Assembly (NCBI GenBank): GCA_038874215.1
Contig: JAVZCV010000036.1
Span: 1 to 6,413 of the forward strand
DNA: 6,413 nt
Source of the DNA: Candidatus Micrarchaeia archaeon
GTDB lineage: Archaea > Micrarchaeota > Micrarchaeia > Burarchaeales > JAVZCV01
Reading direction: 5' to 3'
Positions 2,186 through 6,413 of the stretch are shown here, one piece after another. Within the stretch, counting starts at the first letter, position 1. Each line of letters starts with the position of its first letter. Below the pieces are notes generated by a model that had not been told where the DNA came from, ran no database searches, and saw only the letters and a list, made by a program, of their open reading frames with translations. Made by a program: the position numbers and the translations under genes.

Positions 2186-2689
2186 TCACAAACCTATGAA
2201 ATTCCTGTTTCCCCTGTCAAACAATTTTTTTTCCCTCCTTCCGCTATCGTGAATTTTAACAACTTCGCCCACGAAGATAGTATGGTCGCCCGTTCCTATG
2301 CTGGCTACGACCTTGCATTCCATGTTGGCCATGCATTCTTTTATGAGCGGGGGTTTAACGCAATCAGCCTTCATTGGCGTTAGCTTTGAGAATTTGTCCG
2401 TGTCTCTGCCGCTCGTCGTACCACAGAAGAGCGCTTCCTCAACCATATTCTCGGAGGGTATGCCAAGCACGAACTCTCTCGTCTCACTTATGGATTTGTG
2501 GCTGTATCTCGTGTTCCCGACACATATTGCCACCATGAAAGGATTGAATGAGGCGGGCATCGCCCACGCAAGTGTTATTATGTTGGCTTTGCCTTCTTTG
2601 TTTACGCTACTCACAAGAACAACCTGCGCTGGATAAAGCCAGTGGTACGGTTTTTCGGCGTAGTTGTATTCAAAGTCGGTTTCAGACAT
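2186..2689 (-). CDS. Flavin reductase-like (DIM6/NTAB, flavoredoxin-type) FMN-binding split-barrel protein
   Basis: Family-typical segments: LYPAQVVLVSS, NIITLAW, RYSHKSI, CGTTSGRDTDKF, MECKV and GDHTIFVGEV. Confidence 0.9.
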   Translation of the reverse strand: MSETDFEYNYAEKPYHWLYPAQVVLVSSVNKEGKANIITLAWAMPASFNPFMVAICVGNTRYSHKSISETREFVLGIPSENMVEEALFCGTTSGRDTDKFSKLTPMKADCVKPPLIKECMANMECKVVASIGTGDHTIFVGEVVKIHDSGRREKKLFDRGNRNFIGL

Positions 2690-3467
2690 GCTCTCCCTTT
2701 ATGCCCAACAGTATAAGTTTTTTTTCCAAATCTTCTTTAAGTTTTTCGGCTATGAAGTGCTTTGTGTATGCGTCTCCTTTTGCTGCGATTGATATCTTCG
2801 CTGATAGGAGACGCGCAATTTTTCCGCGCACTTTCTTCGGGGACATGCTTATGTATGGATGCTTAAATATTATTCCGTGTTTAGGTGGCTTTGTGTGTTT
2901 TCTCAGATGCTTGAAAAGCGCTTTCTCGGCTCCCATAACCTGAATTCTGCTCGCCGACATTCGTGCGAGTTTTTCTATGCTGCCTGCCTTGGCGATGAGC
3001 TCCGCTGTAATAGCAGGGCCTACTATGTAAGATGTGTTGGGGGCAACATCTGATGCAAGCTTCTCCTCGTATTCGGAAAGTTTCTTTCTAATTTCGTAGA
3101 GGGATAGGATGAGTTTTGCGAGCTCTTTCATCTGCTCTATATCATCTGGCTCAAATTTAGCGCCGAGGCTCTTAGATGCGCTATTTGCTATCTCATGCGC
3201 TTTTTTTGAACCAACAACTTTTGCGAGTTCTTCTTCATCTATTGAATCCCTGTTTATCGCAAGAACGAGCTGTGGAAACTTCTCGCCCTCTGCCTTCAAT
3301 TCGGGGAAATAGAGGCCGTACCATTCTCGCAACCTTGTGCTGAGCAGGTTTATCGTTTTATCAAGCTCTGAGACTGCGCCGACTGTATGTATCAGAAGCC
3401 TGTCCCTCTCGCCAAGAGCTACTGAAACGGCTTCGCGAGTTCTTCTCAAAATCTCGTCTCGGTCCAT
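2682..3467 (-). CDS. nop5: Nop5 (aNOP56/58) box C/D RNP scaffold protein, coiled-coil plus Nop domain, short N-terminus
   Basis: Signature segments LDKTINLLSTRLREWYGLYFPEL, APN, IQVMGAEKALFKHL, PPKHGIIF and RGKIARLL. ATG at 3467 has SD GGGGTGA, and an in-frame TGA lies immediately upstream. Confidence 0.93.
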   Translation of the reverse strand: MDRDEILRRTREAVSVALGERDRLLIHTVGAVSELDKTINLLSTRLREWYGLYFPELKAEGEKFPQLVLAINRDSIDEEELAKVVGSKKAHEIANSASKSLGAKFEPDDIEQMKELAKLILSLYEIRKKLSEYEEKLASDVAPNTSYIVGPAITAELIAKAGSIEKLARMSASRIQVMGAEKALFKHLRKHTKPPKHGIIFKHPYISMSPKKVRGKIARLLSAKISIAAKGDAYTKHFIAEKLKEDLEKKLILLGIKGEHV

Positions 3468-3551: not shown

Positions 3552-4016
3552 TTATGAACTCTGGTATATCTCAATTGTTCCGTTTCTGTTTCTTATGAAA
3601 ATGTTGCGAAGCGTGTTATTGAGTGTATAGCCGTATTCGGTGCCGTTTTGCAGGTATGCGAAATTGGTGGGTGAAACTGTGATGTTTTTTGTGAGAATTG
3701 GCAAAGATATATCGGATTGGTTTTCTTCATAGTAAATATCAACCGAGCCAGACAGCGTGTTTATTACGAGCGTGTATGTCATGAAACCTTCTGCGCGTGA
3801 TGGGATGGTGAAGTTACGCATATAGCCGTCTCCCGCGCGCACGGCATTGTCTATTTCTTCCGCAACCTGAAAGCCCAATTCCTCGGCTATGCCTTTTGTC
3901 TGCATGCGCGCATCCCGCATTGCATCGCTTGTAAAGAGTGCTAACAAAACCACAAAAGCAAGCACAACAACGCCAAATATCACTAGGTATTCAACGGCAC
4001 TCTGAGCTCTATCCAT
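3552..4016 (-). CDS. Class III signal peptide-containing (type IV pilin-like) protein
   Basis: Starting from ATG 4016 gives MDRA|QSAVEYLVIFGVVVLAFVVLLALF: basic residue at -2, Q at +1, E at +5, then a hydrophobic helix. Six N-X-S/T sequons follow. The ORF track start (4031) is 5 codons earlier. Confidence 0.85.
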   Translation of the reverse strand: MDRAQSAVEYLVIFGVVVLAFVVLLALFTSDAMRDARMQTKGIAEELGFQVAEEIDNAVRAGDGYMRNFTIPSRAEGFMTYTLVINTLSGSVDIYYEENQSDISLPILTKNITVSPTNFAYLQNGTEYGYTLNNTLRNIFIRNRNGTIEIYQSS

Positions 4017-4023
4017 CAAACCA

Positions 4024-4518
4024 CTATCCAAAAGGAGGATAGACTACTACACAGCGAGGCGTAGAGGCTCCGCATGTGCCCGCATCGTCCATTGCTTCTA
4101 TTGTAAGGTGGTAGGTGCCGCTCTTGCTGAATCTTTCTGCATAAGTGCTATCAGCCCATTTTGTAGGGACTAATGTAAGAGCTACAACGTCGCTCTTACC
4201 CGAGGGTGTGAGCACTCTTATTACCACCTCTCTCCCGCTTGTTATTGATGAGCCTCCGCTCGCCTCCTGTCCTATTATTATTTTCTCCGTATTCTGCGGT
4301 ACTGAAATTAGAAGATTCATTTTTGCTGGCGGGCCCATAGCGCCGACTATATCTATCGCGTTCTTTATCCTTTTTGCCGTGTTTTCTGCTTGCGCTATCG
4401 CTATTTGCTGTGAGGAATTGCTCACTTGTAGATAAACCAAAAAGATGACAGGTAGTATTACGGCAACGGCAAACGCTATCGTTATCAGGAGTTCGGTGCT
4501 GACCTGTGCTTTTACCAT
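4024..4518 (-). CDS. Class III signal peptide-containing (type IV pilin-like) protein
   Basis: Starting from ATG 4518 gives MVKA|QVSTELLITIAFAVAVILPVIFLVYL (Q+1, E+5). The longer ORF-track start at 4677 overlaps the upstream gene and would bury the signal peptide. Confidence 0.85.
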   Translation of the reverse strand: MVKAQVSTELLITIAFAVAVILPVIFLVYLQVSNSSQQIAIAQAENTAKRIKNAIDIVGAMGPPAKMNLLISVPQNTEKIIIGQEASGGSSITSGREVVIRVLTPSGKSDVVALTLVPTKWADSTYAERFSKSGTYHLTIEAMDDAGTCGASTPRCVVVYPPFG

Positions 4519-4560: not shown

Positions 4561-4891
4561 CAGTCCAGATTTCGTTAAGCGCGGATTGCATTGCGTATAT
4601 GGTATAAAGTGTGAGAGGGGGTATTGCAAAAATAACCAATAACGCCCGTGTGTCAAGGCCGTTAAAGCCGCTGTCAATTGAGAGGTGGTCTATCTCGTTT
4701 AGCGTTTTCCAAACCACAAAAAGGTTTAATATGGGGATTATAAATACGAGCGTGCGGAGGAGGGGGTTGATATCAAGCGATGCATACTCTGAAATTTCTT
4801 TATTTATTTTATAATACCAGAATATAGCGTAGAGCCCAAAGGTTGAGATGATAAAGGCAATAACCCTCATTGGGTCAATCGGCTCTCCCAC
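4550..4891 (-). CDS. Small multi-pass membrane protein, DUF4234-like
   Basis: Three hydrophobic segments with the pattern STFGLYAIFWYYKINKEI ... IPILNLFVVWK ... YAMQSALN, resembling DUF4234 from memory. GTG start with GGGGT upstream. Confidence 0.75.
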   Translation of the reverse strand: MGEPIDPMRVIAFIISTFGLYAIFWYYKINKEISEYASLDINPLLRTLVFIIPILNLFVVWKTLNEIDHLSIDSGFNGLDTRALLVIFAIPPLTLYTIYAMQSALNEIWTAKG

Positions 4892-4920
4892 ACAAACCCC
4901 ATGTATTCAAGGAGCGTTGT

Positions 4921-4938
4921 ATTTTATATAATTTTGTT
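4921..4938. promoter_or_regulatory. Bidirectional TATA box between divergent genes
   Basis: Palindromic TTATATAA at 4924-4931. It lies about 23-30 nt before the Lrp ATG (4954) and about 33-40 nt before the GTG at 4891 on the other strand. Confidence 0.55.
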
Positions 4939-4953
4939 TATCATAATTGAAAC

Positions 4954-5262
4954 ATGATAACTGCGATAGTATTAATTGAAGCGGAGGTTGGTGCGGCAAT
5001 AGATGTCGCAGAGAAGGTTGCAGCATTACCAGAAGTGCGAGAAGCGTACACTGTTGCAGGAAATTACGATGTGGTGGCAATAGTATGCGTTAAGGAATTT
5101 GAGGAAACGAGCCGAGTAGTGGTTGGGAAGATATCAAACATACCGGGAGTGAAGAAAACAACGACGCTTTTTGCTTTTGAATGCTTCTCCAGATATGACG
5201 TTGAGAGGATGTGGGGCGTAGGATTTGAGGAGAAGATAAACCAAAAAACACCCTCGCAATAG
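4954..5262 (+). CDS. Stand-alone Lrp/AsnC ligand-binding (RAM) domain protein, no HTH
   Basis: MITAIVLI...LPEVREAYTVAGNYDVVAIV...IPGVKKTTTLFAF matches the AsnC C-terminal domain. The protein is 102 aa with no N-terminal helix-turn-helix. Confidence 0.9.
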   Translation: MITAIVLIEAEVGAAIDVAEKVAALPEVREAYTVAGNYDVVAIVCVKEFEETSRVVVGKISNIPGVKKTTTLFAFECFSRYDVERMWGVGFEEKINQKTPSQ

Positions 5263-5277
5263 TGGATGCTTGCAGAA

Positions 5278-5312
5278 ACCGGATTAGAGGGGTTCGATTC
5301 CCTTCCCCAGCT
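5278..5312 (+). tRNA. tRNA-Cys 3' half (positions 38-73)
   Basis: A38, CCGGA anticodon-stem strand, TTAG variable loop, AGGGG-TTCGATT-CCCTT T arm, CCCCAGC acceptor strand and T discriminator. No encoded CCA. Confidence 0.93.
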
Positions 5313-5337
5313 TTAAACTTGAAAAGACGTCGTCTGG

Positions 5338-5373
5338 GCTGGGGTGGCAGAGTGGCTATGCGTCCGGCTGCAG
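5338..5373 (+). tRNA. tRNA-Cys 5' half (positions 1-37)
   Basis: GCTGGGG acceptor strand, T8, D arm GCAG-AGTGGCT-ATGC with the conserved GG, TCCGG stem strand and CT-GCA-G loop. Confidence 0.93.
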
Positions 5374-5400
5374 AACAAAATTTTAGTGGGGGGCGTCATA

Positions 5401-5844
5401 TTGGATTTAATAGATATAGTAGAGGAGAAAAAAGGGTGGTTGGCGCTTGTTATTCCTGCACTTATATATTTGTCTTTCTACAACAGGAATGATCCATTAA
5501 TAATAACAACTTTGTTCTCATACGTAGTAGGGATTGCGTTTTTAACCATAGAGTTAGAGAAAATAAAGAAGGAGATAAGCAGAAATAAGGATAGATTGAA
5601 GGATGATATTCGCGTTTTGCAGTTTGTATTTTCTAAGAAATCAGTTCTTGCTTCAGGTATGTTGTTGCTAATATGTTGCCTCGTAACTTTATGGTATCTA
5701 TACCAGCGTATTTATGAATTTTGGGCTTACGCGTTTTTTATATCTCTTATTTTGGCATTTGTGTATGCGGTGATTATGGCAGTTGTTAAAGTTGGTGTTC
5801 GGAATATTAAGAAGATAGTAGATAATTCTAATAATAATCAATAG
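5401..5844 (+). CDS. Hypothetical membrane protein (about 4 TM), low GC
   Basis: Open frame with hydrophobic segments. TTG 5401 follows a G-rich SD-like run (5388-5393), and GTG 5386 is an alternative. The ORF-track start (5344) falls inside the tRNA 5' half. No family recognised. Confidence 0.7.
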   Translation: MDLIDIVEEKKGWLALVIPALIYLSFYNRNDPLIITTLFSYVVGIAFLTIELEKIKKEISRNKDRLKDDIRVLQFVFSKKSVLASGMLLLICCLVTLWYLYQRIYEFWAYAFFISLILAFVYAVIMAVVKVGVRNIKKIVDNSNNNQ

Positions 5845-6413
5845 TTGCCGATTAGTAGAGCTTCGGCTTTTTGAAGAAGTTTTCTTTTTTGTTTAATGAA
5901 GACGCTGGTGGTGTGGATTTCGCTTTCTATCCGCTTTATGTCTGCAAGCAGATTGGCAGGTTTTGTCCCGCTTCTACGATTAATTACATTTGCGGGTGTT
6001 AGAGCTTTAAGTTCGCTATCTTCAATTTTAACACTCGCCCGCTTGCTTATCTCGTCGGCATTTATGGAATTGAGTGGTTTTCCCTCTNNNNNNNNNNCGC
6101 CTTTTTGTGCGAGCAAATCGGCAAGGTCCGTCGCCAAAGTATAAACGCTGGTGGCTTCGGCCATTCTCGCCTTGTTGAATTTTGAGCGTTTAAGTATTTC
6201 GTTTAGTATTAGAAGAGATGACTTCGCGATTTCAACACTCCTCATGAGCGGCTTTTTTGTTTCTTGCGTGTCTGCATTGTGCCCAGAGATGAGCGATTTG
6301 GTTGTAGAAAGAATGGAGAAAAGCCCCCCATGCACTCTTGATGTTCTTGCCCGCATGATTTCAAGCGCATCGGGGTTCTTTTTCTGGGGCATTATTGAGG
6401 AAGTGGTGCAGAA
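5838..6413 (-). CDS. argH: Argininosuccinate lyase, C-terminal part (5' end beyond window)
   Basis: The frame is open to the window edge and reads FCTTSSIMPQKKNPDALEIMRAR, the fumarase/ASL superfamily signature in its ArgH form. It also contains the ArgH-typical ATDLADLLAQKG. Confidence 0.9.
   Translation of the reverse strand, partial: FCTTSSIMPQKKNPDALEIMRARTSRVHGGLFSILSTTKSLISGHNADTQETKKPLMRSVEIAKSSLLILNEILKRSKFNKARMAEATSVYTLATDLADLLAQKGXXXXEGKPLNSINADEISKRASVKIEDSELKALTPANVINRRSGTKPANLLADIKRIESEIHTTSVFIKQKRKLLQKAEALLIGNY
6088..6097. other. Assembly gap (10 N) within argH
   Basis: Ten Ns at the point where ArgH normally has the PFRxAHxxVG helix, so the true gap is probably longer than 10 nt. 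Confidence 0.95.

Follow-up and report, generated by a model that had tools for sequence, protein, structure and literature searches.

Organisation of the tRNA-Cys locus

The stretch of DNA analysed here (6,413 nt, referred to as the window), from a small archaeon of hot springs, was found to hold a tRNA-Cys(GCA) gene that is written with its 3' half before its 5' half and is broken in the anticodon loop. The 3' half (5278..5312, + strand; 35 nt, A38 to U73, tRNA positions 38-73) carries the 3' strand of the anticodon stem, the variable loop, the T arm, the 3' strand of the acceptor stem and the discriminator U73, which we take to be the cysteine identity base. It is followed by a 25-nt spacer closing the acceptor stem (5313..5337, +), which opens with the T-rich start usual for tRNA-Cys trailers, and then by the 5' half (5338..5373, +; 36 nt, G1 to G37, positions 1-37) with the 5' strand of the acceptor stem, the D arm, the 5' strand of the anticodon stem and the anticodon GCA at 5370-5372. 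Rejoined and read as a circle, the two halves give a 71-nt tRNA-Cys(GCA) with U73, in which the acceptor stem is Watson-Crick paired throughout (7/7), the anticodon stem is complete (5/5), the T stem has five pairs including one G-U and the D stem has three. The T loop is intact, and CCA is not encoded after U73. The order of the halves on one strand, the short spacer at the acceptor stem and the complete cloverleaf with a coherent identity are those of circularly permuted tRNA genes.

A call of tRNA-Cys(gca) on 5278-5373 was obtained using ARAGORN in circular mode, and together with direct reading of the sequence this bore out the halves, coordinates, complementarity, GCA anticodon, U73 and length of 71 nt given in a preliminary description of the locus. 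That description also expected standard scanners to miss the gene, and on the linear window ARAGORN did report no tRNA, nor was there an Rfam match at E<=1. A pattern combining the T loop with the Cys 5' half matched once in the window and in 0/200 shuffles, and up to 34 of the 36 bases of the 5' half are identical to tRNA-Cys 5' exons of relatives. ARAGORN also gives some call for many shifted junctions; placement of the break point therefore rests on the geometry of the splice motif and on the positions of introns in relatives.

Splice motif at the precursor ends

The ends of the predicted precursor would form a relaxed bulge-helix-bulge at the canonical 37/38 site. On the leader side (5271..5277, +), 5272-5275 pairs 4/4 with tRNA positions 32-35 as the central helix, and 5276, 5277 and A38 make up a 3-nt bulge with a predicted cut at 5277/5278. 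On the trailer side (5372..5375, +), the second bulge consists of A36, G37 and 5374, with a predicted cut at 5373/5374. The outer helix comprises one pair, 5271:5375.

Comparison was made with 29 tRNA-Cys loci of relatives, ten of which have an intron at 37/38 that was measured and twelve of which have no intron, with the remaining seven left unparsed by the script (six of these show an intron and a downstream 3' half, and one stops at a contig end). The central helix is paired 4/4 in 7/10 of the measured introns, and 9/10 have no outer pair or one. The motif of the permuted gene can be regarded as typical, since its 4/4 helix and single outer pair fall within the range of these ten natural introns, and by this measure it appears to be as good as theirs. 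ViennaRNA was found to zip the trailer-side bulge (5271:5372, p 0.88), giving the outer pair p 0.0; the competing T of the permuted gene's motif is present in 6/10 natural introns. The folding z-score of the precursor (-1.67) is unremarkable. Motif geometry and the intron position of relatives both place the junction at 37/38, that of type II in the Soma classification, and the junction at 59/60 and encoded CCA of type IV (the Thermofilum pendens type) were not found.

Neighbouring genes and transcription

Upstream of the tRNA lies a gene for a stand-alone Lrp/AsnC ligand-binding domain (4954..5262, +; PF01037, 61 bits), with its stop codon 8 nt 5' of the splice motif. A TATA-like box, identified by motif scan only, is found at 4923..4932 (+), 31 nt before the ATG of this gene. 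TATA-like hexamers within 4881-5420 start at 4923-4927 and at 5312 only, leaving no other such motif upstream of the tRNA within 4881-5311 and none directly upstream of it. As the sole TATA-like motif in that interval, the box at 4923..4932 is the likely promoter of the permuted tRNA. The Lrp stop lies so close to the motif that co-transcription is the simplest reading, and the Lrp-domain gene and the tRNA are probably transcribed together. A TATA-like motif within 60 nt is also absent from 7/24 other tRNA genes of the host. A sigma-70 scan gave nothing above shuffles, this model being unsuited to archaea.

The hexamer at 5312 lies in the spacer region, 26 nt before G1, and falls partly within the usual T-rich trailer. 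It could act as a second promoter if the locus were an adjacent split tRNA, made as two transcripts, with the 5' half starting from the spacer, that are joined in trans with no circle; Aeropyrum provides known cases of split halves next to each other, according to the accessible text of PMC3218864. However, the motif starts at least 29 nt before the gene in 15 of the 17 host tRNA genes that have one, a distance of 26 nt would start transcription inside the tRNA, and the bases of the hexamer are those of the T-rich trailer that usually follows U73. Leader and trailer share only five pairs, as opposed to the long complementary extensions of split tRNAs, as gauged from the precursor and mature sizes in the same accessible text (PMC3218864), and no longer pairing was predicted with 5200-5420. 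No long complementary leader and trailer extensions of the split-tRNA kind were found, and we consider a split gene improbable.

A 15-base match to the leader on contig C1 falls within a membrane-transporter-like reading frame and was attributed to chance. In a synteny search, four neighbouring proteins had no match near the tRNA-Cys loci of relatives, and the Lrp-domain protein had no close match in 28 genomes of the order (25-45% identity). Further upstream, the Nop5/Nop56 gene at 2682-3467 (-) is short, its 261-aa product aligning with positions 127-373 of a 417-position NCBIfam model. Two adjoining genes without a Pfam match are found at 3552-4022 and 4024-4518 (-), and to us the N-termini of their products resemble the class III (pilin-type) signal peptides of archaea.

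Second assembly and haplotypes

A contig assembled separately from hot-spring DNA (run X1, contig 4) covers 4921-5375 unbroken, and differs from the window by six substitutions and one deletion, none of them within 5271-5375; the absence of strain differences inside that interval is not significant (p 0.16). Contig 5 of the same run covers 5346-5527, bridging the 5' half to the trailer. The only run containing the stretch is X1, possibly related to the source sample, with runs X2 and X3 covering only 34 bases derived from another organism's tRNA-Cys. The preliminary description had called for reads across the linker and flanks as a check against misassembly, and the X1 contigs cross both with the order unchanged.

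With a single genome it might be suspected that misassembly exchanged the two halves of an ordinary gene, all the more as the sample contains an intact tRNA-Cys at higher depth, visible in X1 as a joint of 5374 to 5280 (depth 56). The loose ends of that joint match relative L004 and its acceptor stem differs from that of the permuted gene, identifying it as another organism's ordinary tRNA-Cys. The half order is not a misjoin, given that X1 contig 4 runs without a break from the leader through the 3' half and the spacer into the 5' half while the second contig carries the 5' half on into the trailer, and a misjoin would not yield a correct splice motif. An artefact is accordingly regarded as very improbable.

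The X1 assembly graph forks right after 5375, the last base of the splice motif, with depth 7.6 dividing into 4.6 and 3.0. Of the two haplotypes, one follows the window and the other rejoins it at 5917 via approximately 98 different bases. Graph joints at such likeness can stem from other organisms, according to the tool's own warning, but the depths add up (7.6 = 4.6 + 3.0), which argues for a true haplotype bubble. The segment replaced in the second haplotype (5376..5916, +) has a low GC content (34%), takes in the last 26 codons of an argininosuccinate lyase gene, and contains a gene for a 150-aa membrane protein (5392-5844, +) that is absent from the second haplotype and for which all Atlas leads were under 0.9.

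Sole tRNA-Cys of the assembly

The host assembly comprises 1.13 Mb in 38 contigs and is 91% complete. A genome-wide search for another tRNA-Cys or further halves, as proposed in the preliminary description, found no further piece of a tRNA-Cys in this assembly using ARAGORN, Rfam and a 14-mer scan. Throughout the assembly, 14-mers from the Cys-specific parts of both halves did not recur at <=1 mismatch, the 14-mer matches that did occur being to generic starts of tRNAs or to T loops, or else due to chance. None of the 24 Rfam tRNA matches in the assembly lies at the permuted locus, and none of the 24 gene starts is that of a tRNA-Cys. Cysteine codons make up approximately 1.6% in the host by a rough count, and a CysRS is present.

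The single Cys call of ARAGORN (contig C3, with a 436-nt 'intron') was rejected by eye, lying inside the open frame of an iron-sulfur protein, and at low threshold ARAGORN was uninformative on the contigs of this genome. An acceptor-loop scan of the assembly gave two candidate permuted tRNAs, the second of which was likewise rejected by eye, having no T loop or D arm; no second convincing case emerged.

Many host tRNA genes hold one to three introns, several of them in the T or D loop, which ARAGORN misses. At C17:13186-13310, downstream of the intact gene, a tRNA 3' exon is duplicated as an orphan; immediately ahead of this duplicate are 16 bases that match the tRNA-Cys 37/38 intron in genome G005 (L133; E 0.008). 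Apart from the canonical CysRS on C25, a second CysRS-family ORF of 413 aa, with HIGN replacing HIGH, was found at C11:11508-12407 (L068:1198-2439).

It can be asked whether the permuted unit is a non-functional relic of duplication or integration, the working tRNA-Cys being encoded in the unassembled part of a genome that is 91% complete. Consistent with this, a 7-base direct repeat (5271-5277, 5369-5375) flanks the unit, which also borders the variable segment 5376-5916, and the same genome carries the C17 orphan duplicate of another tRNA's 3' exon. Both halves, however, lack no base, complement each other and show no decay, and both haplotypes retain everything up to the last base of the motif. 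Furthermore, positions 32-37 are palindromic, so that the splice helix itself requires four of the seven bases of the repeat. A relic is therefore judged to have only a small probability.

Processing genes and proposed maturation

The EndA of the host, encoded on contig C2, was found to align end to end with the epsilon2 EndA of ARMAN-2 (4FZ2; E 9.6e-139), and it retains the Tyr-Lys in its specificity loop. The ARMAN-2 enzyme cuts strict and relaxed motifs (accessible text of PMC3239211 and PMC12397907), and the epsilon2 type has been reported from Micrarchaeum and Mancarchaeum (PMC5829648, likewise in part). The enzyme type would thus mark the host as Micrarchaeota-like. Genes for RtcB, RNase Z and the CCA enzyme all score over the cut-off in the host, while an RNase P RNA-like gene (C14:20994-21234, 241 nt) gave a full-length match of 73 bits against an Rfam archaeal cut-off of 84.

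The layout, the complementarity of the halves, the splice motif, the uniqueness of the gene in the assembly and the presence of these processing genes were observed directly, and the permuted tRNA-Cys with a break at 37/38 that the preliminary description proposed is now backed by its anatomy, by its being the sole copy in the assembly, by the second assembly and by the processing genes. As far as DNA shows, both of the refuting conditions named in that description were decided in favour of the permuted gene. Most likely the locus is a working tRNA-Cys(GCA) gene, circularly permuted, of type II (37/38) and present in one copy, in a Micrarchaeota-like archaeon.

In the algal pathway, as set out in the accessible text of PMC3978253, the RNA folds, both bulges are cut, the ends are ligated to a circle, the circle is opened with RNase P and RNase Z, and CCA is added. 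Maturation of the permuted tRNA-Cys is likely to follow the same course of cutting, circularisation, reopening and CCA addition. A single transcript, probably from the promoter of the Lrp gene, would contain leader, 3' half, spacer, 5' half and trailer, fold as a cloverleaf, and form the relaxed bulge-helix-bulge from its ends. The epsilon2-type EndA would then cut at 5277/5278 and 5373/5374, RtcB would close a circle of 96 nt by ligating G37 to A38, RNase P and RNase Z would take out the 25-nt spacer and so reopen the circle, and the CCA enzyme would complete the tRNA.

Distribution and origin

The Cys 5'-half pattern was found in 328/401 genomes of the phylum and the permuted pattern in 1/401, the host only, in tallies that include two genomes flagged unpublished (G073, G222); the remaining 327 genomes have the same 5' half and no upstream T loop. 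No second permuted tRNA-Cys was thus detected by pattern search in the 400 other phylum genomes, all of them from outside the genus and family of the host. The preliminary description had suggested comparing the locus in related genomes: tRNA-Cys is in normal order at 28/29 loci of relatives, one being cut by a contig end, and the permuted layout was found in the host only. At the cut locus (L003; G011 C99:1-36) the last base of the contig is G37 of the tRNA-Cys, whose 3' half is unassembled; no 3' half lies upstream, so that this gene is not permuted.

A covariance model of the layout gave 91 bits for the window, itself a training member, and at most 42.5 bits elsewhere in 149 phylum and 28 order genomes. 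Among its top 46 loci, none of the 42 that could be parsed has an upstream partner, and four were unparsed. There were no matches to the permuted pattern on viral contigs. Genes with introns in the T or D loop, or with spacers longer than about 60 nt, would escape these layout patterns. With the permuted layout seen in one species, there is no covariation support.

Pattern searches of metagenomes and genome contigs, one of which used a pattern differing slightly in the D arm, returned 20 and 11 matches respectively. All were rejected, having an intact tRNA-Cys downstream and representing tandem arrays or chance T-loop matches. Tandem Cys-Cys genes with spacers of 22-58 nt account for 6/20 of the metagenome and 6/11 of the genome-contig matches, in other archaea; the named carriers are methanogens and not members of the host's phylum. 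At five loci (L033, L042, L044, L059 and L060, of which L059 is titled Methanocella) a tRNA-Cys-like copy was seen 4-7 nt before an intact tRNA-Cys, with U73, a 4-base CCAC loop replacing the anticodon loop, and a stem that varies but remains paired.

The presence of the 5' half without an upstream T loop in 327 other phylum genomes argues for a late and independent origin, and as far as searched the permuted layout appears to be recent and lineage-specific. In the duplication-and-loss model, as described in the accessible text of PMC3978253, tandem genes are the precursor state. An alternative origin would be the insertion of a small circle, the unit being bounded by the 7-base direct repeat, of which the splice helix demands four bases.

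The lack of a promoter motif of its own and the position of the tRNA 8 nt behind the Lrp stop also allow a more speculative reading, in which the tRNA would be a circular 'intron' of an mRNA, excised by EndA from the Lrp-gene transcript with the flanks possibly re-ligated, and in which its borders would mark the insertion of a small circle. Insertion, as against tandem duplication, is suggested by the direct repeat at the borders and by the two haplotypes parting at its final base. We regard this combined reading as possible, although on balance unlikely.

Comparison with known permuted tRNA genes

The permuted tRNA-Cys genes of Ostreococcus and Micromonas are reportedly from Maruyama et al. 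2010, and the permuted tRNAs of Cyanidioschyzon merolae from Soma et al. 2007. Table 1 of Soma 2014 (PMC3978253) gives Ostreococcus lucimarinus, O. tauri and Micromonas pusilla as carriers of type II permuted tRNA-Cys(GCA). According to the accessible text of that review, these genes share isotype, anticodon and the 37/38 junction with the gene described here, and also have no further intron and no encoded CCA; their spacers measure 26, 38 and 12 nt, respectively, compared to 25 nt here. They differ in being eukaryotic nuclear genes, whereas the present gene is archaeal and its exons match the ordinary tRNA-Cys of the host's own phylum, from which we infer an origin independent of the algal genes. 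C. merolae has six type II genes and is the source of the pathway of cutting, circularisation and reopening (same text); its circle has been shown experimentally, while circle formation in archaea is left open by the review in its accessible part (PMC3978253) and is predicted here.

The archaeal cases published to date come from one crenarchaeon, Thermofilum pendens. Its two permuted tRNA genes are of type IV, with a junction at 59/60 and CCA encoded, as given in the accessible texts of PMC3978253 and PMC3218864. Like the present gene, these are archaeal and single-copy, with the 3' half before the 5' half on one strand and a splice motif at the ends. They differ in junction (59/60 against 37/38), in spacer (7 and 1 nt against 25 nt), in encoding CCA and in having an extra 37/38 intron, neither of which is found here. 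T. pendens also has an (alpha-beta)2 EndA and its permuted genes have their own promoter, in contrast to the epsilon2-type EndA and the absence of an own promoter motif in this case. The precedent of T. pendens named in the preliminary description thus stands as regards permuted genes in archaea; it does not extend to the layout, for which the closest match is the algal type II tRNA-Cys.

ARMAN-2 (Ca. Micrarchaeum acidiphilum) has the same type of EndA and also a disrupted tRNA-Cys, although in normal order and with an intron at 59/60, and no permuted gene is reported for it in the accessible portions of PMC3239211 and PMC12397907. For archaeal permuted tRNAs, Chan 2011 is the sole reference given in the accessible texts of reviews from 2014 and 2026 and of the tRNAscan-SE 2.0 paper (PMC4033280, PMC13578239, PMC8450103), and a further review from 2014 remarks, in its accessible part, on the scarcity of such genes (PMC3978253). 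No archaeal 37/38 or DPANN permuted tRNA was found in the openly accessible literature that was searched. An archaeal type II permuted tRNA, in a DPANN-like host with an epsilon2 enzyme, has apparently not yet been reported.

The algal-type 37/38 layout, in the same isotype as in green algae, is thus now seen in a DPANN lineage with a different type of enzyme, one that exists as a recombinant protein with solved structures. Permuted layout is one way in which 'missing' tRNAs arise in DPANN annotations. A late origin of the gene favours the 'recent origin' view of permuted tRNAs over that of a relic of an ancient hairpin. If the tentative reading as an mRNA 'intron' is true, the supply of cysteine tRNA would be tied to the gene of an amino-acid-sensing regulator, and a recent insertion of a tRNA-bearing circle, if true, would represent the origin of an archaeal permuted gene caught in the act.
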